From positions 515,031-579,030 of the forward strand of contig CBDBHR010000030.1 of NCBI GenBank assembly GCA_965205865.1: DNA of 64,000 nt. The letters run 5' to 3'. The notes below the pieces were generated by a model, which did no database searches, was not told the DNA's origin, and saw nothing but the letters and a program-made list of their open reading frames with translations. Made by a program: the position numbers and the translations under genes. Source of the DNA: a bacterium. GTDB lineage: Bacteria > SAR324 > NAC60-12. Of the stretch, positions 3,385 to 50,872 are shown piece after piece (the first letter of the stretch is position 1; every line of letters begins with the position of its first letter).

Positions 3385-4905
3385 ATGCCCAAAACCCGAG
3401 GATTGATCGCTGCCGGCCATATGGCCACTGCAGAAGCTGCCGCTTCCATTTTGCGAGAAGGTGGCAACGCCTTTGACGCAGCCGTCGCCGCATTCCTCAC
3501 CAGTTTTATTTCAGAACCATGCATGAACTCGGCGGGAGGTGGCGCATTCATGGTGGCCTGTGACAAAAATGGAACTGCCTCGGTTTACGATTTTTTCGTG
3601 CAAACTCCCCAACACAAACGTCCTCGGGAGGAAATTCAGTTTTTTCCCATAGAAATCGACTATGGCGCCACCAGGGAAATATTCCATGTAGGGATGGGTT
3701 CTGCCGGCGTGCCGGGTTCCATTGCGGGAATTTTCCAAATGCATGCGGATCGGTGCAGTCTTCCCATCAGAGTCCTGGTAGAACCGGCAATCCAGCTGGC
3801 GCGCAGTGGAGTGGAAGTGGACAGTTTCCAATACCATTCATTTCGCCTTCTCGAACCCATCCTTGCCTTGAATAAAAAAGTCTCCCAGGTCTTTTGGCGG
3901 AATGGACGGCTCATCCCGGAAGGGGAGTTGATGTTTATGCCTGAATTGGCGGACAGTCTTGATTACATGGCTCGCGAAGGAGCCGATGCATTCTATAAAG
4001 GAGAAATTGCCAGAAAACTGATCCTGCTCAATGAGGGAAGAGGCGGCCATCTCACTGCGAAAGATTTGGAAGATTACCAGGTCCGCATCCATCCACCATT
4101 GCAATTTCGCTACCGGGACCGGAAAGTGATCACCAATCCCCTCCCCAGTTTGGGCGGGAGCCTGATGGCTCTGATGTTGGCAATGCTGGAAGCGAAAGGT
4201 CCTGTCGATTATCCTCCACTGAGCCGAAACCACGTGGAACGGTTGATGGAAGTCTGTTACGATACCAGTCGGATTCCCAGAACACCGCAAAGACTTGTCG
4301 AATACCTGACACAGTGGTATCCCGGACAACGCTTTACGGCGTCCCATCACAGTGTCAAAATTGGAGGAACCAGCCACCTGAGTATCCTGGATGAAGATGG
4401 CAATGCCGTTGCCATGTCGGTCTCGAATGGAGAAAGCTGCGGTCATTTTATCCCCAAAACCGGAATCCTGATGAACAACATGCTGGGAGAATCCGCCCTC
4501 TTACCCAATGGTCTTCACTCCTGGGAGGAAGACGTGCGTCTCGGCTCCATGATGTCACCAACCATCGTGCTGGATAAAGAAAACAATGCGGAATTGGTGC
4601 TGGGAAGTGGAGGGGCCGGCCGTATTCCCTTCATGATTGCGCAGGTGATCCATTACGTTGTCGATCATGGAATGGAGATCGAAGAGGCCATCAACGCCCC
4701 ACGGCTTCATTGCTATGACGGGCTCTGCAACCTGGAACCCGGTTTGCCCAGCGATATCCAAATGCCCTCCTTTCTGCGCGAATTTGTTTTCTGGGAGGAA
4801 CAGTCTCTTTTTTTTGGCGGCGTGCACGGGATCCGCTGCCGGAACGGCAGGATGCGGGCAGAAGGAGATCAACGCCGCAGCGGGGTCATGCTTCGGGTTT
4901 ATTGA
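3385..4905 (+). CDS. ggt: Gamma-glutamyltranspeptidase family protein.
   Basis: GGT-like sequence throughout (GHMATAEAAASILREGGNAFDAAVAA; T..GGT.HLSILDEDGNAVAMSVSNG). GGAG RBS before ATG 3385. Confidence 0.75.
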   Translation: MPKTRGLIAAGHMATAEAAASILREGGNAFDAAVAAFLTSFISEPCMNSAGGGAFMVACDKNGTASVYDFFVQTPQHKRPREEIQFFPIEIDYGATREIFHVGMGSAGVPGSIAGIFQMHADRCSLPIRVLVEPAIQLARSGVEVDSFQYHSFRLLEPILALNKKVSQVFWRNGRLIPEGELMFMPELADSLDYMAREGADAFYKGEIARKLILLNEGRGGHLTAKDLEDYQVRIHPPLQFRYRDRKVITNPLPSLGGSLMALMLAMLEAKGPVDYPPLSRNHVERLMEVCYDTSRIPRTPQRLVEYLTQWYPGQRFTASHHSVKIGGTSHLSILDEDGNAVAMSVSNGESCGHFIPKTGILMNNMLGESALLPNGLHSWEEDVRLGSMMSPTIVLDKENNAELVLGSGGAGRIPFMIAQVIHYVVDHGMEIEEAINAPRLHCYDGLCNLEPGLPSDIQMPSFLREFVFWEEQSLFFGGVHGIRCRNGRMRAEGDQRRSGVMLRVY

Positions 4906-6460: not shown

Positions 6461-6497
6461 CCCCCCTCCCCTAGCCCCTCCCTCCAGGGGAGGGGGA
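6461..6497. repeat. G/C-rich palindromic dispersed element (REP-like), family CCCCTCCCC...GGGGAGGGG.
   Basis: cccccctcccctagcccctccctccaggggaggggga. Nested inverted repeats; related copies at 16473, 33581, 40544, 41391 and 48383-48694. Confidence 0.8.
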
Positions 6498-6530
6498 TTC
6501 TCTTGAAGCGGTATTTGGTATCAGCTCTGA

Positions 6531-16229: not shown

Positions 16230-16472
16230 TCACTCTCCTGAGGAATCCAAGATCTCTCGCGTTGCTCGAGACGACAGGGTATTTTCGGTTGAAAAATCTA
16301 TTGACGATATGAGTTCCGCATGTGCGCCGGCTCATTAATAAAACGAGATGGATTTTATAGCAATCGGTTAATTGCGCAAGATAAAAACATCGCTTGAATA
16401 CGCGCCCTCAGAAACGATATTCGTAAAGGATCGACCGGTAATGAGGAATGTCTTTCTTCGTACGCTAGAATA

Positions 16473-16505
16473 CCCCTCCCCTTGAGGGAGGGGCTAGGGG
16501 AGGGG
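16473..16505. repeat. REP-like G/C palindromic element.
   Basis: cccctccccttgagggaggggctaggggagggg in the frdA-rlmH intergenic region. Confidence 0.8.
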
Positions 16506-16674
16506 TAAACCGATTTCAAAGTCTGCCCGAAATCCATTTTGCTCATCGAATTCAGGGCGAAATGGAAGAGTGGGGCCATCCCTGGTATGATAAACAATCA
16601 GACGCAAGAAACCTGAAGGCGCCCTGCTTTTTTTCTGCTGAATCACTCATACTGAACAAGCGGACTGCTGAAAA

Positions 16675-17162: not shown

Positions 17163-18473
17163 ATGAGACGACTCGTCATATTGGCTGCAATTTTGATCTT
17201 TCTCTGCATTGCCGGTTATTTCATTTACATGAATAACCACAAAGTTCCTCTTGTACTGATGGGTTCTTATACACTTCATTTATCCTTGTGGCTCATCTTA
17301 TTCGCAGTGTTTCTTTTCGGCTGGTTACTGGCTTGGATCCATCAAGTTCTTTTTCATCCGGATCGCCTGTTTCAACGAATCAAAAACCGCCTGGCGCGTT
17401 TTCAAGACACCAAACGGGAGAAAAAGCGCCAGACCTATTTTGACGCTTCTCTACGCTATGATTTGAAAGCAATGCGAGCTACTTTCCGCAGTATGCGGCG
17501 TTCGGACAGGCTCCCTTTGCATATCAGAGCGCATTATTTGAAACAACAACGTTACCAACAATCCAGTGCTTCCTTGATGGAGGCTTTTCACCAACTCAAA
17601 CAACAATACACCGGCAATTTGCAGGTCCTGCTTCCCTATCAAAAACTGGCGCTGGAATTACAGGAATGGGGACTTGCGGAATTGCTCAGCCAGGAAATTC
17701 TGGATTTGGAAAAAGACCATCCCCGTGGCCTGGAAGGATTGCGGCAGATCCATCAACACCGGCAGGAGTGGGAAAAATGCGCGCAGCAGGAAGTCAAACT
17801 CCTCACCCGTTTCCCCCAAAGCATGGTTGCCGAGCTCTTGCTTTTCCAACATGAAATCCACTTGCTCAAAGGATACGAACAAAATCCCCGCTTGATTTCG
17901 CAAAAAAACTTGAACCATTTTCCGGGCAAAGCCTCCGCGTTCAAAGAATTTCATCAAGTCACGCTGGCGCTGGCGGAAGCGGAGCGAATGTGCCGCAGCC
18001 AACAATACGAACAAGCTGCCAGATTGCTCAAACGCAGCTATGAGAAAACTGCCGCCCCCGTCTTGTTGGATCGCTTGGAGTCCATATTTTACCAAACAGG
18101 GCAGAGTGAGAAAGTCTCGAGTATTTTGCGTGATCTCCAACTGTCTTCTTCAGCAACCCTCTACGTGGACTTGGTCCGGGCTCGCATTCATTATCGTTTG
18201 AATCAGTTCGACCAGGCCCGTTCCATATTGAGCAGATTGGCCACCCGGCACCCCAAGCCACCTGTCTTGTATCGCACTCTGGATTATCTGCTCGCGAAGC
18301 AAGAAAGTAATCAAGAGCAACTTATCGAAGCGGCGCAGTCGTTGATTCCGGCAGAAACCCTGCTGGCAAACCTCTATTCCTGCAAACAGTGCGGAGCAGT
18401 CGGTGATTGGCAATCCGTCTGTCAGCGTTGCAACCACGTATACAGCTACGTTCACCGTGATCACTTGACCTGA
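17163..18473 (+). CDS. lapB: LPS assembly protein LapB (YciM)-like TPR protein with a LapA-like two-TM N-terminus (apparent LapA-LapB fusion).
   Basis: Two N-terminal TM helices plus the WLLAWI..RIKNRLARFQ LapA-like region. TPR-like repeats. C-terminal rubredoxin-like CxxC..CxxC (CKQCGAVGDWQSVCQRCNH). Confidence 0.6.
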   Translation: MRRLVILAAILIFLCIAGYFIYMNNHKVPLVLMGSYTLHLSLWLILFAVFLFGWLLAWIHQVLFHPDRLFQRIKNRLARFQDTKREKKRQTYFDASLRYDLKAMRATFRSMRRSDRLPLHIRAHYLKQQRYQQSSASLMEAFHQLKQQYTGNLQVLLPYQKLALELQEWGLAELLSQEILDLEKDHPRGLEGLRQIHQHRQEWEKCAQQEVKLLTRFPQSMVAELLLFQHEIHLLKGYEQNPRLISQKNLNHFPGKASAFKEFHQVTLALAEAERMCRSQQYEQAARLLKRSYEKTAAPVLLDRLESIFYQTGQSEKVSSILRDLQLSSSATLYVDLVRARIHYRLNQFDQARSILSRLATRHPKPPVLYRTLDYLLAKQESNQEQLIEAAQSLIPAETLLANLYSCKQCGAVGDWQSVCQRCNHVYSYVHRDHLT

Positions 18474-26491: not shown

Positions 26492-26578
26492 GCCGAAGTG
26501 GCGGAATTGGTAGACGCGCTAGATTCAGGTTCTAGTGTCCGCGAGGACGTGGGTGTTCGAGTCACCTCTTCGGCACCA
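26492..26578 (+). tRNA. tRNA-Leu (anticodon CAG), long variable arm.
   Basis: GCCGAAGTGGCGGAATTGGTAGAC...CTAGATTCAGGTTCTAG anticodon loop (CAG). Variable arm GTCCGCGAGGACG. T-arm GGGTGTTCGAGTCACC. Ends CGGCACCA. Confidence 0.85.
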
Positions 26579-26607
26579 TTTCCCTCTGCGGACGCTTTTT
26601 TCTTAAC

Positions 26608-26680
26608 GGCCAGATAGCTCAGACGGTAGAGCAGAGGACTGAAAATCCTCGTGTCCCTGGTTCGATTCCTGGTCTGGCCA
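26608..26680 (+). tRNA. tRNA-Phe (anticodon GAA).
   Basis: GGCCAGATAGCTCAGACGGTAGAGCAGAGGACTGAAAATCCTC...GGTTCGATTCCTGGTCTGGCCA. Near-identical architecture to canonical bacterial tRNA-Phe. Confidence 0.85.
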
Positions 26681-31283: not shown

Positions 31284-31650
31284 AAGGAGCCCGAAACATA
31301 GTCGCCGGTGATCGAATCACGGGAGGAAAGTCCGGGCAACGCAGGGCAGGATGCTGGCTAACAGCCAGGCAGCGCGAGCTGACGGAAAGTGCAACAGAAA
31401 ATAAACCGCCGATGGCTTTTTTGAGCACAGGCAAGGGTGAAAAGGCAGGGTAAGAGCCTACCGCGGCTCTGGTGACAGAGTCGGCAGTGTAAACCCCATC
31501 CGTTGCAAGTCCAAATAGAACCGCGTCGAAAGATGGCCCGTCCAGCGGTTGGGTAGGACGCTCGAGGTTCCTGGCAACAGGGATCCCAGATAAATGACTA
31601 TGGTCTGCCGCAAGGCAGGAACAGAACCCGGCTTATTGCGGGCTCCGCTC
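31284..31650 (+). ncRNA. rnpB: RNase P RNA (bacterial type A).
   Basis: P4 GGGAGGAAAGTCCGGGC; ACAGAAAATAAACCGCC; GGTAAGAGCCTACC; GCAAGTCCAAATAG; 3' ACAGAACCCGGCTTA. P1 pairing ggagcccg (31286-93) with cgggctcc (31639-46). Confidence 0.75.
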
Positions 31651-33408: not shown

Positions 33409-34398
33409 TCAAAACAAATCGGGTTTGAGCGTATGGTTTTGCAATGCATGCATGGTACTCGAAGAAATCTCAGACAAAAAGCGAGACACGGTGGCCACTT
33501 CGTTGGCAGGAAGCGCATATCGGGATATGAATTCAACGGAAAAATTGCCGGCAAGCGGAGCATGCTCTTCGGATGAAAGAATCCCCCTCCCCTTGAGGGA
33601 GGGGTCGGGGGTGAGGTGTCGCGGGGAGGGGTAATACGGCATTTGGGCCATGATTTGTCGGCAAGCCGCTTCATTGGGATCGAGTATCACCGCCTGGCGT
33701 CCCAACTCTTGAAAGGCTTTTTCAAATAATTTTGCCTGGTATCCATAATGGGTACATCCCAAAAAAGCATAAAGGGGTTTGAAAGGTCGGGACGTTTGCG
33801 CCAGGGCAATTTTGATGAAGTTCGTGATGCTCTGATAGACCTGTTTTCCTTCAGGGTCATTGGAGATCATGGTGGCCACTCCCGGAAGGGCTCGGGAAAT
33901 CATGCGATCGCCGGCAATGCCGGCTGCTGACAGCTTTGTGGCGTAAATCGATTCCGCAATGGTGGTCTCGGCAGCAAAAATGAATACGCCGGATGCGGGA
34001 TTGGCGGAGAGGTGGCGGACAATCTGGCAGACGCCGGCGGAAATCATACCTGCCGGCGAAAGGGCAAAGCGACGGCTTTGCTTGTCCTGGAAAAAAGCCG
34101 TCTCCGAGAGCAAGGCGGACAGAGTATGGCAGGCGATAAAAATGAAATCAGGCTGGTACCAGCGCTCGATCCCCGCCAGGACTTTGTCGAAGAAAAAAAT
34201 TTTCTGCAACCGCGATTCCATTTGATTGAATCCCCAATCATTTTCGGGAACGGCATTCACGTATTTGAATTCGACGGAAGCGGAGCGCCACCTGTTTGGG
34301 CGCTTGGCGGAACCAGACGCTCCGCCGACGCGGCGAGGGGTCAGTAAGGCGCAGATGGACAGGCCACCCAGTCCGGAATCGACAATCGCAATTTTCAT
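33409..34398 (-). CDS. murI: Glutamate racemase. The ORF runs about 60 codons past the expected MurI C-terminus, through a REP-like element.
   Basis: MKIAIVDSGLGGLS N-terminus. The conserved CTHYP-type motif (LGCTHYGY) is present. The C-terminal tail (PSPRHLTPDPSLKGRGIL...) is encoded by repeat DNA. Confidence 0.8.
   Translation of the reverse strand: MKIAIVDSGLGGLSICALLTPRRVGGASGSAKRPNRWRSASVEFKYVNAVPENDWGFNQMESRLQKIFFFDKVLAGIERWYQPDFIFIACHTLSALLSETAFFQDKQSRRFALSPAGMISAGVCQIVRHLSANPASGVFIFAAETTIAESIYATKLSAAGIAGDRMISRALPGVATMISNDPEGKQVYQSITNFIKIALAQTSRPFKPLYAFLGCTHYGYQAKLFEKAFQELGRQAVILDPNEAACRQIMAQMPYYPSPRHLTPDPSLKGRGILSSEEHAPLAGNFSVEFISRYALPANEVATVSRFLSEISSSTMHALQNHTLKPDLF
33581..33631. 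repeat. REP-like G/C palindromic element (degenerate, compound), lying in-frame inside the murI 3' extension.
   Basis: tccccctccccttgagggaggggtcgggggtgaggtgtcgcggggagggg. Confidence 0.75.
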
Positions 34399-34446: not shown

Positions 34447-37400
34447 TCAGTTTGCCATACCAGCCGCCTCTTGAAATTCGACCGAAACCATTTTGGAAAC
34501 TCCCGGCTCTTCCATGGTCACCCCATACAAACGGTGCCCTATTTCCATGGTCCTCTTGTTGTGCGTGATGATGATGAATTGTGAATCCTTCATCATCTGT
34601 TGGATCATCACATTGAAACGCCTCACGTTCACGTCGTCCAAAGGCGCGTCTACTTCATCGAGTAAACAAAAAGGACAGGGTTTGATCAAAAAGATCGCAA
34701 AAATGAGCGAGATGGCCGTCAGGGCTTTCTCACCTCCTGAAAGCAAATTCATGTTTTGTAGTTTTTTCCCGGGAGGCTGAGCAATGATCTGAATACCGGC
34801 TTCCAGGACGTCTTCGTCATCCGTCAGAACCATGCGGGCCTCTCCCCCTTCGAACAAGGTGGTAAAGGTCTCTTTGAAATACTGATTGACCTGTTCGAAG
34901 GTTTTCTGAAACCGCTGGCGTGATTCCACGTTGATTGCTCGAATGGATTGTCTCAAATCATTCATGGCCTTTTGCAAATCCGAAGATTGCTGCTCCAGAA
35001 AAAGGACTCTTTCCGCGAGGGCCGCGTGTTCCTGCGGAGCGCTCTGGTTGACGTGGGACATTTCGTTCAACCGCGCGCGCAATTTTTTCAATTGTCCCGC
35101 CAGCTGACTTTCATCGAGATTCTCGAGATCCAATTGCTCCGTCATTTCCTGAGGAGCAAGGCTGTATGAATTGGATATTTCCTCTTCGATTTGTTCACGC
35201 TGAATGCGTTGTTCGGTTGCCTGCAGGCTTGCTTCATGTATTTTCGTCAACAACCGCTCCAACTCCTCCGTCAGCTCCTGCAAATCTGTAGAGGATTGGG
35301 ATCGTTTTTCCATCATTTGCTCGTGAATCTCCGTTTCCTGGTTCAAACGGGTCTTCAAGGCATCCCTTGCTTGCAGAAAGTCGTCGAAACGGGAATCGAT
35401 TTCTGCGATGATCTGCCGGCTTTTTTTGATTTTTTCCCCGACTTCTTTTTGAGAATTCTGCAAAACCCCCATGCGTTTCCGACAATCCATCGACTCGTGG
35501 GATAGTCGTTGTACCCGCTCCTCAGCGGTTTTGAGTTGTTGATGGACTTCCGTCAGCTTCACCCGGGTGGTGAGCAAGGTTTCCAATATTTTTTCCACGG
35601 TCTCCCGTTGGGCCCGCATCGATTGCTGGTGTCCTTCCATTTCCCCTTCCAGGCGTTTGCGGTCTTTTTCGAGGTGGACCAGTTTCGTATCGATTTCCTG
35701 CCGGTCTTTTTCATATTTTTCGATTTCCTGCCGCTGCTGTTGCCGGTCTGCTTTGAGTTGTTCCTTGAGTTGCGCGGTCCGTCGGTGTTCGAGTTGGTCG
35801 AATTCCAGTTCTTTGTGGAGGCGGGACAATTCCACATCCGATTCATGCTGCCGGCTTTTTTCCCGGTCAATGGTTTCACTCCGTTGCGAGTATTGATCTT
35901 CGAGGGCCGTTTTTTCTTTCTGCAAGAGGGCCATTTCTTTCTGCGAATGCGATGCTTTTTGGGTCAGCATTTCAATTTGGTTTTTACGTTTGAGGAAGCC
36001 AAAGGACGATTGGCGAGGCTGACCGATTCTGACGATTCCCTGCCGCGCGTAATAACTCCCTTGAGGAGAAATCCATTCAATGGCTGTTTCGTCCACCGGT
36101 CGGGTTTGCCATGCCTGCTGGTTTTCCACCAGGTAAATCCGGCTGAAGAATCCCCGCGCCAACGAAGTAACGGCAGTATCCGGCAGGGGGGCGACGAATC
36201 GAAGCAGATCCGACAAAGGAATACCGGGCAGTTGGCCGGGAGGGGGAAAATGGTCTGCCTGGTCCAGGGGGATGAAACCCAGGCGCCCCATTTCCTGCTG
36301 CTGGCAAAACCTTTCGATCTCGGGGAGAAATGCCGCTTTTTCCACCAGCAACAAATCCAGGTAATCCACCAGGGCGGGAGCGACTTTGGCAAAGTGGGAA
36401 GCTTCGACGTTGAGGAATTCAGCCACCACTCCTATAATTCCCAGGCGTTTTTTTTCCGCAGGGGATTCTTTCAGCAACATTAAAAAAGATTTCACGCTTT
36501 CATCGAGATCTTCATATTGATCCTGAATGCTCCTCAGGGATTCGAGGTGGGAGGTAGTCGTCTGAAAGCGATATTGTCTTTCCTGCAGTCGCCTCTCATG
36601 GTCCGCCATTTTTCTTTGATGATCCGCATGCGCCGCTTCCAATTCTTGCAGGGATTGCAAAGCCTGCTCTTGCTCCGTCTGCAAACGATTGACGTTTTCC
36701 CCGGTTCGCGTCGCTTTCTCATGAGTCTCGCGCAAATAGGCCTCGTTGCTCCGTCTCTGTTCCTCGAGGCGGATGCCTCGTTCCGAAGTACTTTCAAGAC
36801 GGTCTTGCAAAAATCCTTTTTGATTCGAGTGATTGGTCAAGCGCGTATGAATGGCAAGCAACTGTGTTTGTAAGGCTTGCGTGGCTTCGTTCAAGGTATT
36901 CAGGACGTTCCCCTCCTGTTGACGAGACTGCTCGACCTGCTCGACGTCCTCCTCGATTTGCACGAATTGTTTTTCCAGCAAGGCTGTTTCCTCTTGCGCG
37001 CAAGCCTGCTGCTCCCGCAAGATGGCGTCCTTGCCTTGCAATTCTTCCAACTCGCGGGCGTGTTGTTGGATCCACTCCTCGTAGTTTTGTATGTTTTGCC
37101 GTTCCAGTATACGTTTGTTGTCACTTTCCTGGATTTCCCGTTCTTTCTGAAACGCCTCTTCGCGAAGGGTTTCCAGGTGGGTGTTGTGCCGGGTCGATTC
37201 CGAAGAAAGTTGTTCCAGTCGATTTTCCCGGACGGCGCGCTTTTCCTGCAAGACCGTCTGCTGTTTTTGGTGGCGGTTTTTGATGGTTTGCGATTCTTTT
37301 TCCTGCCGCTGCGTCCTTTGCCATTTCAAGGCCAGCAGTTGTTGATCGATTTGCCGCGTTTTATTTTTCAGATCGAGATAACGGATCGCTTTGTCCATTT

Positions 37401-38034
37401 GTTCGCGGAGGCCTTTTTCCTGGCGGCGCAACTCCTGCAGCAGATCGTCGACGCGCAACAGATTTTGCTGCGTGCTTTCCAAGCGTCTTTCCGCAGTTTG
37501 ACGTTTCGTTTTGAATTTGACGATACCCGCCGCTTCCTCGATCAGATAACGGCGGTCGAGGGGTTTGGCGCTAATTATTTCTCCCACTCTTCCCTGCTCG
37601 ATGATAGCATAGGATTTGCTGCCGATCCCGGTGTCCATGATCAACTCCCGCACGTCCATCAAGCGTACCGGTGATTTATTGATCATATAGACGCTCTCGC
37701 CGGAACGGTACAATTTACGGGAAACCGAAATTTCCGCAAAGTCCCGGTATCGAGGCAACACGGGACCGGCCTGATTATCGAAGGTCAGCATCACCTCGGC
37801 CAGGCCGACCGGTTTTTGGAAGTCACTGCCTGCGAAAATCACGTCTTCCATCCCGCCTCCACGTAAGTGCTTGGCACTTTGCTCTCCCAGCACCCAGAGG
37901 ATGGCATCGGCGACGTTGCTCTTGCCACACCCATTGGGGCCGACCACCATGGTGATGCCATTTTGGATGAACTCGAATTTGACGGAATGACAAAAAGACT
38001 TGAATCCTGTGATTTGCAGACTTTTGATGCGCAT
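34447..38034 (-). CDS. smc: Chromosome partition protein Smc.
   Basis: 1195 aa. Walker A (GPNGCGKSN); long coiled coils with hinge; C-terminal ABC signature (LSGGEKALTAISLIFAIF) and Walker B (LDEVDAPLD). Confidence 0.9.
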   Translation of the reverse strand: MRIKSLQITGFKSFCHSVKFEFIQNGITMVVGPNGCGKSNVADAILWVLGEQSAKHLRGGGMEDVIFAGSDFQKPVGLAEVMLTFDNQAGPVLPRYRDFAEISVSRKLYRSGESVYMINKSPVRLMDVRELIMDTGIGSKSYAIIEQGRVGEIISAKPLDRRYLIEEAAGIVKFKTKRQTAERRLESTQQNLLRVDDLLQELRRQEKGLREQMDKAIRYLDLKNKTRQIDQQLLALKWQRTQRQEKESQTIKNRHQKQQTVLQEKRAVRENRLEQLSSESTRHNTHLETLREEAFQKEREIQESDNKRILERQNIQNYEEWIQQHARELEELQGKDAILREQQACAQEETALLEKQFVQIEEDVEQVEQSRQQEGNVLNTLNEATQALQTQLLAIHTRLTNHSNQKGFLQDRLESTSERGIRLEEQRRSNEAYLRETHEKATRTGENVNRLQTEQEQALQSLQELEAAHADHQRKMADHERRLQERQYRFQTTTSHLESLRSIQDQYEDLDESVKSFLMLLKESPAEKKRLGIIGVVAEFLNVEASHFAKVAPALVDYLDLLLVEKAAFLPEIERFCQQQEMGRLGFIPLDQADHFPPPGQLPGIPLSDLLRFVAPLPDTAVTSLARGFFSRIYLVENQQAWQTRPVDETAIEWISPQGSYYARQGIVRIGQPRQSSFGFLKRKNQIEMLTQKASHSQKEMALLQKEKTALEDQYSQRSETIDREKSRQHESDVELSRLHKELEFDQLEHRRTAQLKEQLKADRQQQRQEIEKYEKDRQEIDTKLVHLEKDRKRLEGEMEGHQQSMRAQRETVEKILETLLTTRVKLTEVHQQLKTAEERVQRLSHESMDCRKRMGVLQNSQKEVGEKIKKSRQIIAEIDSRFDDFLQARDALKTRLNQETEIHEQMMEKRSQSSTDLQELTEELERLLTKIHEASLQATEQRIQREQIEEEISNSYSLAPQEMTEQLDLENLDESQLAGQLKKLRARLNEMSHVNQSAPQEHAALAERVLFLEQQSSDLQKAMNDLRQSIRAINVESRQRFQKTFEQVNQYFKETFTTLFEGGEARMVLTDDEDVLEAGIQIIAQPPGKKLQNMNLLSGGEKALTAISLIFAIFLIKPCPFCLLDEVDAPLDDVNVRRFNVMIQQMMKDSQFIIITHNKRTMEIGHRLYGVTMEEPGVSKMVSVEFQEAAGMAN

Positions 38035-38633: not shown

Positions 38634-41075
38634 ATGATAAAAGAAAATAAAAAAATGCTCGTCAACGTCGATGATGACGAAACGCGTATTGCCGCGGTCA
38701 CCGGGAATACCCTGGACAATCTCCACGTCGAACAGACGGGAACCAATCGAATGATTGGCAACATCTATCGTGGCAAGGTGGTCAAAGTGCAGAGTTCCTT
38801 CCAGGCCGCTTTTGTGGAATACGGGGCGGAGCGTCACGGGTTTCTGGCGTTTTCGGACGTCAACTTTCAGGTCATCAAAGCTGCCGATAATCCGCTTAGT
38901 AAATCTGCCATTGAAAAATTTCTCAAGCCCGGACAATGGGTCATGGTACAAGTGACCCGCAATCAAATAGGACGCAAAGGGGCGAGTCTGACGACCCATA
39001 TCAGCCTGCCGGGACGTTTTCTGGTCTTCATGCCCAACAGCAACAAGGGAGGCGTTTCCAAGAAAATCGAGGATTTGGAAACCCGGGCGCGCTTGAAGCA
39101 TTTGCTCGAGGGACTGTGTGGCGAGAAAGATTCGGCAATCATCCGCACTGCCGGAGTGAACCGGGGCGCATCCGAACTGAAGCGGGATTTCATGGCCCTG
39201 CGCCGCAAATGGAACGAAATCCTGAGAAATTATGAAAGCGCCGCCGGACCCGGACTTTTGTATGAGGAAGAGGACGTGGTGGTGCGCACCTTGAGAGACT
39301 ATTTTATCGACGACATTGCTGAAATCTGGATTGATCACCCGGAAACCTTTCAACGAGCCCGGGAGTTTTTCAAGGCCAATATTCCCAACCGCCAGAAGCG
39401 CCTGCAATTTTATTTGGGAGAACGTTCCCTGTTTTCGGATTATGGCATTGAAAACCAAATCGAACAGCTCAGCAGTAACCATGTGCCACTTCCTTCAGGA
39501 GGGAGCCTGGTGATCGATCCCACCGAGGCCTTGGTGGCGATCGACGTCAATTCAGGACGTTACAACCAGAGCCATGATATCGAAGAGACGGCACTGCGCA
39601 CCAATCAGGAGGCGGCCGAGGAAGTCGCCCGTCAGCTTCGTTTGCGGAATCTGGGGGGCTTGATCGTGATTGATTTCGTCGATATGACTGGCGAGGAAAA
39701 CCGCAATGCCGTTGTCAGAACGATGGAAGAGCGCTTGCAGGACGACAAAGCCAAGTGGACCCTGGGGAGTATTTCACAATTCGGTTTGCTCGAAATGAGC
39801 CGGCAGCGCATCGCCAATGCGCTTTCCCAGGAAATGAAAACCACCTGTCCCACTTGTGGCGGGATGGGGGAAGTTCTTTCGGTTTCCTCCCTGGCCAACG
39901 CGGTTTTGCGGAAAATCCGGGATCTGGCTGCAACTGCGGTGCGCGGGAGTGGCGAGATCATTGAAATCCATAGCCTCGTTCCGGTGGAATTATCCAATCA
40001 TTTGTTCAATAAGAAACGGCAACAGTTGGATGAACTCGAAGTTGAATTCGGCATCAAGATAGTGCTGACGGCGGATCTTTCCGCAGATCCCGGAAAATTG
40101 CCGGATTTCGAGGTGCTCAACAGAACGGCCGGTACCTCGGAAACGGTCGGTGGAAGCGGGAAAAAATCATTGCGGGAAGAAGAGAAGACTCCCAAGGACA
40201 AGGAAGAGAAAGAAAAATCAGGAAAAAACCGGCGTAAAAAGGAAAAACCGGCGGCTCTTTCACAGCCATCCGAAAGCATGGAAGAAGCAAAAACCGCAGT
40301 CGACCCGGCGGAAGAACCGGTGGATTCCAATAAGGATTTACCTGGCGAAGTGGAAAAGCCACCAAAACCCGTCCCCTTGTATAGCAGCGCCCACCAGCCT
40401 GGGCCCGCAGAGCAGGCAGGCGTCGCGCCACCGGCGCTTCCCTCCGCAAAAGCGAATCCCCCTGATGAGAATGGCAAAGACGTTCCTCCGTCCACCGTGC
40501 TTTTCAGCAGTTCCCATCGTGATTCACGGCAAAACCGGATCAGTCCCCCTCCCCCGGCCCCTCCCTCCAGGGGAGGGGAATTGATCGATCGCGCTCCGGA
40601 GGTTGCGGAACCGGTGGATCATATCAGCGCGGCCGGGGTTGCCGTTTCCGAGCCGGTGAACGAGCCCGCCGCCGTGGAGGTTCCGCCACCAGTTCCCGTC
40701 GCCGGGGAAAAGGCGCCGGCCAAGCCACGCGGCTCCACGAGGCGAAAGCCGACTCAAAAAAAAGAAACAGCCGAGCCGGCCACGCGGAGTGAAAAAAAAC
40801 CGAAGCCAAAACCCCGCAATGCTCCCAAAAAAGCGGAAGATACTGCGGAAAAGAAGGACGAAAGCGCAGCCGTGACTGCAAAGGCGGGCAAGAAAACTGC
40901 TGCAGAAACCGTGAAGAGCAAATCGAAAAAAACGACGACTCCTTCAAAAGCAGAACCCACTGCCACTGAAAAGGCGGCCAAAAAAGCTCAGCCGACCACC
41001 GCTAAAAAGGCAGCCGGGACGAAAACCGCAAAGTCGGGCAAAGCAGTCCGCCAAAGCGGGAAAACAACGGAGTGA
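38634..41075 (+). CDS. rne: Ribonuclease E (RNase E/G family) with a Lys/Ala/Pro/Glu-rich disordered C-terminal scaffold region.
   Basis: S1 domain (GNIYRGKVVKVQSSFQAAFVEYGAERHGFL); DNase I-like catalytic region; Zn-link CPTCGGMG; low-complexity C-terminus. Contains an in-frame REP-like insert at 40544-40579. Confidence 0.85.
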   Translation: MIKENKKMLVNVDDDETRIAAVTGNTLDNLHVEQTGTNRMIGNIYRGKVVKVQSSFQAAFVEYGAERHGFLAFSDVNFQVIKAADNPLSKSAIEKFLKPGQWVMVQVTRNQIGRKGASLTTHISLPGRFLVFMPNSNKGGVSKKIEDLETRARLKHLLEGLCGEKDSAIIRTAGVNRGASELKRDFMALRRKWNEILRNYESAAGPGLLYEEEDVVVRTLRDYFIDDIAEIWIDHPETFQRAREFFKANIPNRQKRLQFYLGERSLFSDYGIENQIEQLSSNHVPLPSGGSLVIDPTEALVAIDVNSGRYNQSHDIEETALRTNQEAAEEVARQLRLRNLGGLIVIDFVDMTGEENRNAVVRTMEERLQDDKAKWTLGSISQFGLLEMSRQRIANALSQEMKTTCPTCGGMGEVLSVSSLANAVLRKIRDLAATAVRGSGEIIEIHSLVPVELSNHLFNKKRQQLDELEVEFGIKIVLTADLSADPGKLPDFEVLNRTAGTSETVGGSGKKSLREEEKTPKDKEEKEKSGKNRRKKEKPAALSQPSESMEEAKTAVDPAEEPVDSNKDLPGEVEKPPKPVPLYSSAHQPGPAEQAGVAPPALPSAKANPPDENGKDVPPSTVLFSSSHRDSRQNRISPPPPAPPSRGGELIDRAPEVAEPVDHISAAGVAVSEPVNEPAAVEVPPPVPVAGEKAPAKPRGSTRRKPTQKKETAEPATRSEKKPKPKPRNAPKKAEDTAEKKDESAAVTAKAGKKTAAETVKSKSKKTTTPSKAEPTATEKAAKKAQPTTAKKAAGTKTAKSGKAVRQSGKTTE
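40544..40579. repeat. REP-like G/C palindromic element inside the rne coding sequence (in-frame).
   Basis: tccccctcccccggcccctccctccaggggagggga, translated SPPPPAPPSRGGE. Confidence 0.8.
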
Positions 41076-41157
41076 TCCACTCGAGCGCTGAGCTGAATTG
41101 GCGTTTCGACCTTGCGGTCAGCTGGAGTGGTGTTCCACGAAAGGCGTGATAAAGGCT

Positions 41158-42699
41158 ATGTCGACCCGCAAAACATCCGCACCGCAACAGCAAAGTAAGG
41201 GGGAAACCCGGGCGGGGGTCCGCTCTTCCAATCCCCTCGAGGCGCGTTCCGCGCTTTATGGTCTGTTGCCTTCGATCAGGGAAGTCGATCATTATCTGAA
41301 AGCGCGCGATCTGCACTTTGGTAAACCGGTGCGCGCCCATGTCAACGGGGTTCTGGACGGATTGCGGGAAGAAATTTCAGCTTCAATCAATCCCCCTCCC
41401 CTGGAGGGAGGGGCCAGGGGAGGGGGATTGGCGGAGGGTGGAGAGCCGGCGGTCCCCCCTTTGCCGTTTTCCAGCAAAGAGCAAATCCTGGAGCATCTGG
41501 CTGCGATCGTCAGGCAGCGGGGTCAGATCAGTATTCGTCGCGTGATCAATGCGACCGGCGTGGTCATTCATACCAATCTGGGCCGCGCTCCTATTTCGCG
41601 GAAATTGATCGATTCGATTCTGCCGCTGCTCTCTTCTTATGCCACCGTCGAGTACGATTTGGAATCCGGCAAACGCGGCACCCGTGGCGAGGGAGTGAGG
41701 AATCACCTGCGCTTTCTATCGGGAGCGGAGGACGCGCTGGTGGTCAACAACAATGCCGCGGCGCTTTATTTGATGCTGGTGGCCCTGGCTTACGGAAAGG
41801 AAGTGATTGTTTCCCGCGGGGAACTCATGGAAATAGGTGGATCCTTCCGCGTTCCGGACATCATGCGGGCTGCCGGCGTTCGACTGGTGGAAGTGGGAAC
41901 GACCAACCGCACGCGTCTTTCCGATTATGAAAAAGCCATCAACGGCAATACGGCCGCCTTGCTGAAAGTTCATCCTTCCAATTACGAGATGCGGGGATTT
42001 GTCGAGGAGACGCCGGTTGCCCAAATTTCCCGGTTGGCGCGCGAGCATGAACTGTTCGCGTTCCATGATCTGGGAAGCGGCAATTTCTATCAATTCGAAC
42101 AGCCGGCCTTGCGGGGTATCTCCACGGTGCAGTGGGAAGTACGCAGTGGAGTCGACCTGCTGACCTTCAGTGGAGATAAATTACTGGGCAGTACCCAGGC
42201 AGGCATCGTGGTTGGTCGTAAAAATCTGATCCGCCGACTTGCCCGCCATCCCCTGTTCCGCGTGCTGCGTTTGGACAAGATCACCATGGCTTTGCTGGAA
42301 GTCCATCTGGCAGCCTATTTTCAAATGGAGACACTGGCCAGCGCCATCCCCACCATCGGACTATTGGAACAATCGAGCGACGCCATCCGGCAAAAGGCGG
42401 AGACCGTGCTGCGCTCCCTCAGCATTCCTCCTCGATGCGGCTGGTCCTGCAAGTTGGCAGCGGCAGCTTCCCTGAGCGGAGGTGGGGCTTTGCCGGAAAT
42501 TTATCTCGATTCCTATTGCCTGGTGCTGGAACACGTCACTTTGCCTGCTGAAAAAATCCAGCAGTTTTTCCGACAACAGGAGATACCGGTCATTGCAAGA
42601 GTGCGGAACAACCAGGTCTGGCTGGATTTCCGCACGGTTTTTCCCGAGGAATTTCCCCTGATCACTCGCGTTCTTCATCAACTGTTCGCTGCTCAATGA
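41158..42699 (+). CDS. selA: L-seryl-tRNA(Sec) selenium transferase.
   Basis: SelA motifs INATGVVIHTNLGRAP, VVNNNAAAL, VSRGELMEIGGSFR, FSGDKLLG. Contains an in-frame REP-like insert (NPPPLEGGARGGGLAEGG) in the N-terminal linker. Confidence 0.85.
   Translation: MSTRKTSAPQQQSKGETRAGVRSSNPLEARSALYGLLPSIREVDHYLKARDLHFGKPVRAHVNGVLDGLREEISASINPPPLEGGARGGGLAEGGEPAVPPLPFSSKEQILEHLAAIVRQRGQISIRRVINATGVVIHTNLGRAPISRKLIDSILPLLSSYATVEYDLESGKRGTRGEGVRNHLRFLSGAEDALVVNNNAAALYLMLVALAYGKEVIVSRGELMEIGGSFRVPDIMRAAGVRLVEVGTTNRTRLSDYEKAINGNTAALLKVHPSNYEMRGFVEETPVAQISRLAREHELFAFHDLGSGNFYQFEQPALRGISTVQWEVRSGVDLLTFSGDKLLGSTQAGIVVGRKNLIRRLARHPLFRVLRLDKITMALLEVHLAAYFQMETLASAIPTIGLLEQSSDAIRQKAETVLRSLSIPPRCGWSCKLAAAASLSGGGALPEIYLDSYCLVLEHVTLPAEKIQQFFRQQEIPVIARVRNNQVWLDFRTVFPEEFPLITRVLHQLFAAQ
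41391..41427. repeat. REP-like G/C palindromic element inside the selA coding sequence (in-frame).
   Basis: tccccctcccctggagggaggggccaggggaggggga; identical to the core unit of the 48.4-kb tandem array. Confidence 0.85.
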
Positions 42700-48209: not shown

Positions 48210-48382
48210 CTTTTGTTTTAATAGAGGTAATGGTATTTGGGGTCATATTGCTCGGTGTCTTCTCGACCGCAGAGAGAGATCTTCAAGGGTCCTCCGGAAA
48301 CCGGGATTTCAATGTTTCTCTCTCCTCAGGTTTCGCTGGCTTGGACCAAATAGTCAATTCATACGAAGTTGCGCATATAAAG

Positions 48383-48694
48383 AATCCCCCTCCCTTGGAG
48401 GGAGGGGCCAGCACGGGAAAATCCCCCTCCCCTGGAGGGAGGGGCCAGGGGAGGGGGACAGCAGCCCAAAGAATCCCCCTCCACGCCAAGAATCCCCCTC
48501 CACGCCAAGAATCCCCCTCCACGCCAAGAATCCCCCTCCCTTGAAGGGAGGGGCCAGCACGGGAAAATCCCCCTCCCCTGGAGGGAGGGGCCAGGGGAGG
48601 GGGACAGCAGCCCAAAGAATCCCCCTCCACGCCAAGAATCCCCCTCCACGCCAAGAATCCCCCTCCCCTGGAGGGAGGGGCCAGGGGAGGGGGC
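48383..48694. repeat. Nested tandem array of REP-like palindromic elements.
   Basis: Higher-order unit: two palindromic cores (89 bp in total) plus 3 copies of aatccccctccacgccaag, then the same 89 bp plus 2 such copies, then one terminal palindrome. The two 89-bp blocks differ by a single substitution. Confidence 0.9.
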
Positions 48695-48823
48695 GCGAAG
48701 CTGGAAGATCCCCCCCGACGTCAAAAAATTCACTACTCGTCGGGTTGTCTTGATTATCCTAAAGATTTCAGTATTACTCATTGAATCACAACTATTTTTT
48801 ATTATTTTCCCTATTCCGGAGCC

Positions 48824-50872
48824 ATGAGATTTCAACTGTATTTTCGTCTTGTACTGCTGCTTTTTTGTTATTTTCTGGGAGCATGTTTCGTCTTTTTTCT
48901 TTTTCGTCTCAACTTTTTGATTCGTTTTGGAGATTTACATGAAATTTCAGTTCATTATAAATGGGACCTGTTCGAGTCTTTTTGGATGGGCGCCCGTTTC
49001 GACGCCAAGGTGCTGGCCATCTCACTGGCGCCTCTCTTTGTTTTATGCGCCTTGAGTCTGCCTTTTCCCAAGGTGAGTCGGAATCTCATATTCTTTTGCT
49101 GGCCCTGGCTTGTTTTACAGTCTTTGCTGCTTTATTTCTTGCTTTTTATAGACCAGCTTTATTACGGTTATTTTCAAAACCATATCGATATTCGCATTTT
49201 TGGTTTTATGGAAGACGATACCCGGGCCTTGCTGGACACTTTCTGGCAGGAATACCCTGTATTGCCTGTTCTTTCCCTTTTGTTATTGCTGTCTGTTCTG
49301 ACGGGCTGGCTGCTTTGGAAATTGCATGCGCGCCTGCGAAACAGAAAAGCGCCCGCCTGTTTTTCGGGGTCGGCAGCCCGCATCTCTTTTGTGATTTTTA
49401 CTTTGCTTTTCGTCAGTTTGGCGGCGCGCGGTTCGCTTGGCGTCTTTCCGCTCGCAAACCAGGAACGTGGCATCTCGGATCACCAGTTTCTGAATTTATT
49501 GGCGTATAACGGCATTTTTAGTTTTTATGATGCCTTCCAGCACCGGATAGAGAATCGATTTTCCACGGACATGGCACCTGTTTTAGCCAGGTATGAACAC
49601 AAAGACCTCCGGGAAGCGCTGCGCAACTATTACCAGCTTGCCAGCCCTCAGGCTCCTTTTCGAAGGTATATGTTCCGCAAGTCGGAGACCGCCTTCAGTG
49701 CTCCGGATAGGAAGTACCACGTCATTCTGATCATCATGGAAAGCTGGAGCGGATATTATTTTCGTTGGCATAACCCGAGCTTTCACCTGTTGGGTCGTCT
49801 GGAGAAGCATTGGGATTCGTTGCTCCATTTCCCATACTTTTTTTCTGCGGAAAATGGCACTATTCTCGGTCTCGAAAGCCTTCTCATAAGAAATTCGGGG
49901 TCAATTTTATCACAGACAAAGTATGCTTCGCACAGCTTCGACACTGCCATCACGCGTCCATTCCTGAAGGCCGGTTATGAAACGCACTTTATCAGCAGTG
50001 GTAAACTGGCATGGCGTAATCTCGATTTATTTTTGCCAATGCAAGGTTTTGAGAAGCTCAGTGGCCAGGTAAAATTAGAATCCTTGCGCAAGGATGAGAA
50101 TGCGCAAAATAACGTCTGGGGTGTTTTTGACGGGTATATGTTTGATTTTATGCTGGAAACCCTGCGCCAGGCTGAGAAACCTCAATTTATGGTAGCCCTG
50201 AGCATTACTCACCATCCGCCTTATAGAACGCCGGACGAGTACCAGGCTTCAGCGCTGCAAATCCCTCCCGCCCTGAGCGCAAAGCTCAAGACTGATAAGG
50301 ACACGGCTCGACGCGCCTTCCTTTCCTTTCAATACGCCAATGACGCTTTGGGTTATTTCCTGGAGCAGATCGAGCAAAGCAACTTGGCGAAAGAGACGCT
50401 GGTCGTCATGACGGGCGACCACAATACCTGGGGTCTGTTGGATTACGATCAGGAGAATCTGCATTGGAAATATGCGGTCCCCCTTCTTTTTTACCTTCCT
50501 CCGGAATTAAAAGAGAAGGTCTCTTTTGCGGACCACCAGCGCTTTGGTTCCCACGACGATATCTTTCCCACTCTGATGGCTCTGCTCTTTCCCGAAGAGG
50601 AATTTCTGCAAACAGGTTACAATCTTCTTGCTCCCCAAAGGCCGCCAAGTTTTGCAGTGAATGCCGCCGGATGGGCTCTGGACCCGCAAGGAGCCGTTTC
50701 CCTGACGGGTCAGCCTTTGTTTTATAAATGGAGCAGTCCCCAACGCCAGAAGCTGGTCAAAAGCGCTCCCCGGCCTGAACTCATGGAATTGAGAAAGAGG
50801 GCGCAGGCTCGTAAGGTAATTATGAATTATGCGTTGCGCGCCGATATTTCAGGAGAACAGGCAGGAAAATAA
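48824..50872 (+). CDS. LTA-synthase/sulfatase-family membrane protein (phosphoglycerol- or phosphoethanolamine-transferase-like; alkaline-phosphatase superfamily).
   Basis: Five N-terminal TM helices followed by a sulfatase domain (VILIIMESWSG..; TGDHN). 682 aa. Confidence 0.7.
   Translation: MRFQLYFRLVLLLFCYFLGACFVFFLFRLNFLIRFGDLHEISVHYKWDLFESFWMGARFDAKVLAISLAPLFVLCALSLPFPKVSRNLIFFCWPWLVLQSLLLYFLLFIDQLYYGYFQNHIDIRIFGFMEDDTRALLDTFWQEYPVLPVLSLLLLLSVLTGWLLWKLHARLRNRKAPACFSGSAARISFVIFTLLFVSLAARGSLGVFPLANQERGISDHQFLNLLAYNGIFSFYDAFQHRIENRFSTDMAPVLARYEHKDLREALRNYYQLASPQAPFRRYMFRKSETAFSAPDRKYHVILIIMESWSGYYFRWHNPSFHLLGRLEKHWDSLLHFPYFFSAENGTILGLESLLIRNSGSILSQTKYASHSFDTAITRPFLKAGYETHFISSGKLAWRNLDLFLPMQGFEKLSGQVKLESLRKDENAQNNVWGVFDGYMFDFMLETLRQAEKPQFMVALSITHHPPYRTPDEYQASALQIPPALSAKLKTDKDTARRAFLSFQYANDALGYFLEQIEQSNLAKETLVVMTGDHNTWGLLDYDQENLHWKYAVPLLFYLPPELKEKVSFADHQRFGSHDDIFPTLMALLFPEEEFLQTGYNLLAPQRPPSFAVNAAGWALDPQGAVSLTGQPLFYKWSSPQRQKLVKSAPRPELMELRKRAQARKVIMNYALRADISGEQAGK

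Follow-up and report, generated by a model that had tools for sequence, protein, structure and literature searches.

Short dispersed repeats of the BoxC, PIT and intrastrand-triplex class are abundant in hundreds of prokaryotic genomes, and their mode of spread has been a question since the 1990s. The earlier work on BoxC and PIT is said to be that of Bergler in 1992 and of Hoyne and Maher in 2000 and 2002, and the Rickettsia palindromic elements (RPE) were reportedly described by Ogata et al. in 2000. Here, we describe a repeat of about 46–47 nt in a 64-kb stretch of DNA from a SAR324-like lineage (the window, W in the lists below), where one copy lies in frame inside the selenium transferase gene selA. 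The repeat is recently active or unstable in this lineage, and its copies come and go among genomes at about 98% identity. The explanation that we consider likely is that it is a recently active member of the BoxC/PIT/TM class whose in-frame genic copies are tolerated passengers.

The class II G/C-rich intrastrand triplex motif TMECO was formerly known as BoxC and PIT (Holder et al. 2015, PMC4666352). Its pattern, CCCTCNCCC-N3-6-GGGNGAGGG-N3-GGGNGAGGG, has 3610 occurrences in 262 proteobacterial genomes. In E. coli K-12, the motif is always intergenic with no mobility genes nearby, and its loci show raised variability between strains. Tests of PIT/BoxC by Hoyne and Maher gave neither promoter nor terminator activity (PMC4666352). 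Under the ITxF definition, three consecutive C-G-G blocks have stems of 6–15 nt with at most one mismatch and loops of 1–6 nt (PMC4666352). In archaea, Methanomicrobiaceae carry interspersed repetitive G-quadruplex sequences (rPQS), each followed by a C3TC3 tract. Test oligonucleotides of these sequences contain GGGGAGGGGG...CCCCCTCCCC and show a hairpin/triplex/G-quadruplex equilibrium in vitro (Chashchina et al. 2021, PMC8044849). RPE are palindromic selfish repeats found in frame in unrelated, often essential genes (PMC10969869).

The window copy at 41391–41427 has the sequence tccccctcccctggagggaggggccaggggaggggga and lies inside the selA open reading frame (ORF) 41098–42699 on the plus strand, as a preliminary description made from the sequence had stated. 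Its block order is C5TC4–TGGA–G3AG4–CCA–G4AG5. When all copies are turned to one orientation, each reads (A)AGAAT / C4-5TC4 / TGGA or TTGA / G3AG4 / CCA or CTA / G4AG4-5, and on the opposite strand the element reads as the complement, C-C-G. The preliminary description had called it a REP-like palindrome, a label that we replace, as it is a three-block C-G-G element of the BoxC/PIT/intrastrand-triplex class. The blocks and loops of the copy, C5TC4 (9–10 nt)-TGGA-G3AG4 (8–9 nt)-CCA-G4AG5 (9–10 nt), are those of an ITxF of class II. The claim that the repeat is a dispersed family was confirmed. The two-arm pattern CCCCTCCCCTGG-N9-CCAGGGGAGGGG, with at most three mismatches, has 7 matches in the window (0.00 expected), and the single block GGGGAGGGG has 17 (0.59 expected). 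A pattern rendered after the preliminary description, with a fixed 2-nt spacer, has no match in the window; in the actual copies, 3–5 nt separate the C block from the first G block. The family tally in the 64 kb is seven full and four partial copies in both orientations, as singlets and in clusters, at a density of about one per 6–9 kb. The copies and related sequences are as follows.

41385–41430, plus strand: copy in selA, in frame, 46 nt, AATCAAT-C5TC4-TGGA-G3AG4-CCA-G4AG5-ATTG, predicted peptide SINPPPLEGGARGGGL
40541–40586, plus strand: copy in the C-terminal non-catalytic region of rne, in frame, sense strand C-C-G, predicted peptide ISPPPPAPPSRGGELI
33574–33635, plus strand: degenerate four-block copy (C-G-G'-G, with an extra 15-nt GGGGGTGAGG) in a MurI-like ORF, in frame
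16467–16513, plus strand: intergenic copy of the TTGA/CTA subfamily
6461–6503, minus strand: intergenic copy, C-G-G on the minus strand, AGAGAAT flank, between convergent genes for a class III alcohol dehydrogenase (ADH) and the transcription-repair coupling factor Mfd
48380–48700, plus strand: intergenic array upstream of a sulfatase/LTA-synthase-like gene (48824–50872)
4138–4146, plus strand: lone C4TC4 block inside a gamma-glutamyltranspeptidase ORF, which may be a relic or chance and is of uncertain family membership

The rne copy and the intergenic position of the copies at 6461 and 16473 were correctly given in the preliminary description. The array at 48380–48700 was not listed there. 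It contains three full copies (at 48423, 48569 and 48659), two two-block hairpins (48386 and 48532) and 19-nt tandem repeats of AAGAAT plus a C block. Two subfamilies can be told apart. The first, C5TC4-TGGA-...-CCA-...G5, comprises the selA, rne, array and spacer copies, the last of these lying between rne and selA in a conspecific genome. The second, A-C4TC4-TTGA-...-CTA-...G4-TAA, comprises the 16473 and MurI-like copies. These diagnostic loops and flanks point to descent from copies and not to independent origin. The 35-nt cores are identical between genic and intergenic copies.

Next, the sites were compared with four conspecific genomes (L119–L122, where L-numbers denote comparison loci or genomes) and with a relative at 72% identity (L118); the conspecific DNA came to about 45 kb in all. 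Five sites are present or absent among conspecific genomes that are about 98% identical, four of which are listed here.

selA site: filled in W and L122, empty in L119 and L120; 22 nt replaced by 46 nt, net +24
rne site: filled in W and L122, empty in L119 and L120; 16 nt replaced by 46 nt, net +30
MurI-like site: intact 47-nt copy in L120, further 15-nt internal additions in W and L122, empty in L119; 2 nt replaced by 47 nt, net +45
rne-selA spacer site: filled in L122 only, empty in W, L119 and L120; 14 nt replaced by 44 nt, net +30

The fifth is the intergenic site at 16473, which is filled in W, L125 and L127 and empty in L123 and L124. It is a clean gain of 47 nt without loss or duplication of target. 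The alleles seen in coding DNA all pair insertion with loss of 2–22 target nt, and their net change is a multiple of three. Across the 4 kb of rne plus selA, W and L119 differ by 1.7% substitutions, and the only indels are the two element sites. The flanks of the two sites combined hold 5 substitutions in 78 nt, compared to this 1.7% background. Hyper-mutation of the flanks is not claimed, as a sample of 78 nt is too small. The spacer copy lies upstream of the ATG at 41158 yet within the ORF that opens at TTG 41098; the coding status of its site is uncertain, and it is probably non-coding.

In 21 kb of syntenic DNA, L118 is free of copies, and its linkers are like those of the empty alleles in length and content, with a SelA of similar length and PGNKEE in rne, compared to PTGEE. 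The empty state is therefore ancestral, and the polarity points to gain in the filled alleles. The variation is also seen in database proteins (P-numbers). The 90%-identity cluster of the window SelA has 12 proteins, eight of which carry INPPPLEGGARGGGL and one of which is truncated. P0121, P0122 and P0131 (94–97% identical) have (A/P)(E/D)RPVAE instead of the insert and are eight residues shorter at that point. Thus, the selA and rne inserts are lineage-specific, as the preliminary description had supposed, and polymorphic even among conspecifics, with SelA proteins at 94–97% identity having or lacking the peptide.

These alleles bear on the possibility that the Pro/Gly-rich segments are ancestral linkers with a coincidental likeness to the repeat, or that the repeats are assembly artefacts. 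Relatives do show variation and low complexity in both the RNase E scaffold and the SelA loop. Ancestral linkers, however, would not share identical 35-nt cores with intergenic copies or have empty alleles in conspecific genomes, and these two observations refute this reading. Artefacts are opposed by the filled selA allele, which was found again in several independent assemblies and samples, and by the genic indels, which are strictly in frame, as sequencing artefacts would not respect the frame. We give this explanation practically no chance.

Each conspecific genome examined has its own version of the array upstream of the sulfatase-family gene, and this is true even of L120 and L121, which are near-identical. 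Its counterparts (L119 17050–17450, L120 17250–17720, L121 17250–17640 and L122 17560–18140) differ in copy number and in repeat variants. In L119 only, a 96-residue ORF with a GIY-YIG domain (17873–18163) lies between the array and the sulfatase gene; it is absent there in the window. At the MurI-like site, the copies of W and L122 have the extra 15-nt G block GGGGGTGAGG, which is TMECO-like, between blocks 2 and 3 (window 33600–33622). L122 has a second 15-nt insert on the left side, and both 15-nt additions are in frame.

The form of the insertions also bears on movement by a transposase. One candidate is a miniature inverted-repeat transposable element (MITE) moved by a DDE transposase family in the genome, such as the insertion sequence at the window edge, where an ORF at 41–1234 encodes a DDE transposase (Pfam DDE_Tnp_1_4, E 1e-37). 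In some other phyla, the modules are held in units of about 150 bp with TTGAGCGATT-type terminal inverted repeats, as expected for a MITE. However, the clean 47-nt insertion lacks the target-site duplication of a MITE, other insertions delete target DNA, and the element is far shorter than typical MITEs. Also, no block motif was found in or beside the insertion sequence at 41–1234. Such an origin therefore seems highly improbable.

Another candidate is a REP/REPIN family mobilised in trans by a REP-associated tyrosine transposase (RAYT), some copies of which land in genes. Each REP family evolves together with its RAYT, the gene for which typically has repeats on both sides, and is specific to a lineage. 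Like REP, BIME and REPIN sequences, the window element is short, dispersed and hairpin-forming, occurs in both orientations as singlets and clusters, and has a density of the kind noted above. REP, BIME and REPIN sequences are extragenic by definition, in contrast to the window element, which has a three-block unit in place of the simple imperfect palindrome and conserved head tetranucleotide of a REP. The search for a Y1/RAYT transposase was negative for the window ORFs scanned, for the genes listed in the approximately 45 kb of conspecific loci and for those of the neighbouring loci. The same core recurs in many phyla, which does not agree with lineage-specificity. The published TMECO/BoxC/PIT family likewise has no associated mobility gene (PMC4666352). 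A RAYT-driven family is thus quite unlikely.

Compared to these, the TMECO/BoxC/PIT family gives a much closer likeness. It shares with the window element three C-G-G blocks of about 9 nt each, a first loop of 3–6 nt and a second of 3 nt, and a length of about 37 nt. Both are multicopy and dispersed in both orientations, without strand bias, and both also form palindromic doublets. The loci of both vary between close strains, which in our case is seen in five presence/absence sites and a hypervariable array. TMECO is not associated with transposases, phages or plasmids; for the window element, the window ORFs scanned contain no Y1 transposase, and no gene recurs beside the 117 cross-phylum loci listed. 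The window element differs from TMECO in its blocks, which are C4TC4/G4AG4 and not CCCTCNCCC/GGGNGAGGG, and in its TGG/CCA loops, which lengthen the pairing of blocks 1 and 3 to 13–17 bp. TMECO in E. coli K-12 is intergenic only, in contrast to the in-frame window copies in selA, rne and the MurI-like ORF, and discrete polarised insertion events are visible in the SAR324-like lineage. The exact TMECO pattern has three matches in the cross-phylum loci described below, about 35–100 nt from a C4TC4-type copy in L087 and L105.

The archaeal rPQS have blocks practically identical to those of the window element (GGGGAGGGGG, CCCCCTCCCC). They are also interspersed and multicopy, and their G-run loops are 1, 3–5 and 1 nt. 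The window copy has GGG-A-GGGG-CCA-GGGG-A-GGGGG preceded by CCCCCTCCCC. The rPQS hosts are archaeal and their C tract follows the G runs on the 3' side (G-G-C), in contrast to the 5' C tract of the window element (C-G-G), an order that the authors note for bacteria; all rPQS copies are reported as intergenic, unlike the genic copies here (PMC8044849). The element thus belongs by architecture to the known BoxC/PIT/intrastrand-triplex class, of which it is a sequence variant, with blocks essentially those of the archaeal rPQS. What is new for this class is the in-frame genic copies, the polarised insertions at strain level and the breadth of the C4TC4 variant.

As a single strand, the element can be modelled as a strong hairpin in which block 1 pairs with block 3 or block 2, as a G-quadruplex made by blocks 2 and 3, or as a triplex. 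Blocks 1 and 3, with the TGG/CCA loops and the AAT/ATT flanks, pair as a hairpin of 13–17 bp, with a predicted free energy for the selA copy of −21.8 kcal/mol as DNA and −38 kcal/mol as RNA. An alternative 8-bp hairpin is possible from blocks 1 and 2. Blocks 2 and 3 give four G-runs, G3-A-G4-CCA-G4-A-G5. With G-quadruplex energies on, the quadruplex is the predicted minimum-energy form for the rne, 6461 and 16473 copies on their G-rich DNA strand, and the hairpin remains the predicted minimum for the selA copy.

The genes that host the genic copies are listed below.

41158–42699, plus strand: selA (L-seryl-tRNA(Sec) selenium transferase), 513-residue product 100% identical to P0001; ORF open from TTG 41098
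38634–41075, plus strand: rne (RNase E/G family, Rne/Rng, 813 residues); catalytic-domain matches end by about residue 562
33409–34398, minus strand: divergent glutamate-racemase-like ORF, host of the degenerate copy

The ORF 41098–42699 was identified as SelA by NCBIfam TIGR00474 (E 2e-151). The selA copy reads in frame as ...INPPPLEGGARGGGLAEGG..., or in wider context ...SINPPPLEGGARGGGLAEGG..., and the predicted peptide stretches that span the inserts are NPPPLEGGARGGGL in SelA and SPPPPAPPSRGGE in RNase E. The SelA insert is at residues 78–91, in a loop of variable length that is N-terminal of the structure-aligned region; the alignment to the solved Aquifex SelA structure begins only at query residue 114. 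In RNase E, the copy is at residues 636–651, past the catalytic-domain matches. The preliminary description had placed a further copy in the 3' tail of murI. An in-frame copy was found in that ORF, but the murI identity is weak (37 bits against TIGR00067, cut-off 147), and the copy is internal, about 58 codons before the stop, in a variable linker, and does not extend the 3' tail. Glutamate racemases in the PDB match this ORF at E of about 1e-3, and no Pfam family matches it. The C-terminal segment downstream of the copy is conserved in the 72%-identity relative.

As an observation on gene calling, the frame is open upstream of the selA ATG to TTG 41098 (41098–41157), and some gene callers extend SelA to 525 or 543 residues. 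In L122, the extended call translates the spacer copy as GRLPPPLAPPSRGGGF, which is probably an annotation artefact.

The preliminary description had proposed, as one of two possibilities, that the length and phase of the element are compatible with coding. For the length, this was not supported. The unit of 46–47 nt is not a multiple of three, and the genic copies are in frame because 2, 16 or 22 target nt are missing. What is intrinsic is that all six frames of the TGG/CCA subfamily are free of stop codons, so that a copy would be read through as an 8–15-residue peptide rich in Pro, Gly, Arg and Leu. Its six-frame peptides are all rich in Pro, Gly, Leu, Arg, Glu, Ala and Ser, and the in-frame copies use two different phases. 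RPE are a parallel to the window element, as they too add a peptide to their host proteins in places where the structure tolerates it. RPE are about 100–150 bp, confined to Rickettsia and of unrelated sequence, with a peptide conserved in one frame, compared to the window element of about 46 nt, which is cross-phylum and open in six frames. Its behaviour is RPE-like, but it is not an RPE.

That the host segments are variable linkers was borne out for SelA, RNase E and the MurI-like ORF. The surviving genic copies appear confined to variable or disordered linkers, namely the SelA N-terminal loop, the RNase E C-terminal scaffold and the MurI-like C-terminal linker. This suggests that they are tolerated passengers and not functional protein modules. 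The suggestion that the element inserts preferentially into disordered segments was not upheld, since survivorship after selection explains the pattern equally well. Most copies are intergenic although the window is about 88% coding (GC content 50.7%), which fits survivorship better than targeted insertion into disordered segments. The GC content had at first pointed to Nitrosomonas, a reading that was rejected, as the SelA homologues indicate SAR324.

The same core was found in other phyla. A scan of one genome per prokaryotic species with CCCCTCCCC-NNG-N9-CNA-GGGGAGGGG, the middle being unspecified, gave at least 117 loci, and those listed span at least 10 phyla. The source groups include Desulfobacterota, Omnitrophota, Alphaproteobacteria (many Acetobacteraceae), Chloroflexota, Planctomycetota, Nitrospirota, Spirochaetota, Armatimonadota, Abditibacteriota, Bacillota and others. 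Left open in the pattern, the centre turned out to be a further C4TC3 or G3AG4 block at about 113 of the 117 loci listed. Several lineages pair the module with a second, inverted one (C-C-G ... C-G-G). MITE-like units of about 150 bp that hold C-C-G and C-G-G modules were seen at L068 5126, L098 1430, L116 2133 and L052 5527; their hosts are Thermodesulfovibrionia, Syntrophobacter and other Desulfobacterota, and they are bounded by inverted repeats such as AAATTGAGCGATTTT / AATCGCTCAATTT.

Three clear in-frame copies were identified among the cross-phylum loci listed. One (L003 4054), from Candidatus Magnetobacterium (Nitrospirota), is inside a 1219-residue SMC, with the insert at about residue 624 and the Pfam domain SMC_hinge at 558–682. 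The other two (L039 7149 and L061 1021) are at homologous positions in two large paralogues of the Omnitrophota metagenome-assembled genome JADFYF01, with ORFs of 1005 and more than 2552 residues, and a second hairpin accompanies the element. These copies argue that genic translation of this repeat class is not peculiar to the window genome. Between the Omnitrophota paralogues, the element DNA is 97–100% identical, compared to about 65% for the flanking coding DNA. This contrast in sequence suggests homogenisation of the element itself, or selection or constraint on it.

Such conservation would also be expected of a selected cis-acting DNA or RNA signal that regulates selA and rne, such as a terminator or attenuator, a Shine-Dalgarno (SD) mask or mimic, a protein-binding site or a G-quadruplex switch. 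Different phyla share the core, and in the Omnitrophota paralogues it is better conserved than the coding DNA around it. Both GGAGG, the SD core, and CCTCC, the anti-SD core, are present in the blocks. The predicted hairpins are very stable, one copy is found where two genes converge, and one array precedes a gene. On the other hand, the copies have both orientations relative to neighbouring genes. When neighbouring genes of the 117 loci listed were clustered, only ubiquitous families recurred, with no linked transposase or regulated family. The PIT/BoxC reporter tests were without promoter or terminator activity (PMC4666352). Presence varies between near-identical strains at every site examined, unlike a required signal, and Rfam has no family for the element in searches of the whole window and eight cross-phylum loci. 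We consider a selected signal of this kind unlikely. An SD/anti-SD regulatory switch was dropped, as spacing to start codons is inconsistent, both orientations occur and the published reporter tests were negative.

The observations are thus best accommodated by a recently active repeat with tolerated genic copies. It is probably a recently spreading, selfish repeat, the copies of which selection filters for frame and location. Its spread would be copy-based, as suggested by the two subfamilies with their diagnostic loops and flanks, and would probably not use a classical transposase. Only four matches were found in 2.9 million viral contigs, which makes a phage vector unlikely. The most plausible route may be structure-provoked breakage or stalling of the fork, after which a templated and imprecise repair would take place. 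The small target deletions may belong to the insertion process, and selection would then pass only in-frame outcomes in genes.

Several points weigh against this explanation. The insertion mechanism itself is something that we infer, and translation of the inserted peptides is predicted from the reading frames. Target loss was also seen at the probably non-coding rne-selA spacer, so deletion may reflect the mechanism and not frame selection. The exact TMECO pattern has no match in the window, and membership in the class therefore rests on architecture and not on sequence identity with the E. coli BoxC. The 33-nt core is nearly identical in different phyla and in the two paralogues, which suggests constraint or homogenisation, and a pure "junk" model fails there. 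Also, the survey covers 64 kb plus about 45 kb of conspecific DNA, and a dedicated enzyme may be encoded elsewhere in the genome.

Other features nearby concern gene calls and RNA genes. SMC is called at 1215 residues in L122 (3290–6937) and 1195 residues in other strains (window 34447–38034). The gene-call lengths of lepA (573, 599 or 616 residues) and of a YiiD_C protein (151 or 157 residues) also differ between strains. The window holds a bacterial RNase P class A RNA at 31286–31650 (319 bits) and two tRNA genes at 26492–26680.

A broader possibility, which we put forward only tentatively, is a transposase-independent, actively spreading bacterial and archaeal element that colonises genes in frame and whose copies stay nearly identical through homogenisation or a sequence-specific host process. 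If this is true, the BoxC/PIT/TM class would have its first polarised insertions in the filled and empty conspecific alleles. The locus supplies dated, polarised gains between near-identical genomes, both a clean 47-nt insertion and insertions with small target deletions, and this data set can be used to weigh repair-dependent against enzyme-dependent spread. The copies can mislead annotation by giving genes false N-terminal extensions and too great a length, for example in the 525/543-residue SelA calls. Judged from their frames, stop-free repeats can be read within important genes, and the same core is in frame in other phyla. Beside the Rickettsia RPE, the element would be a second, much shorter example of selfish repeats that give linker peptides to proteins.

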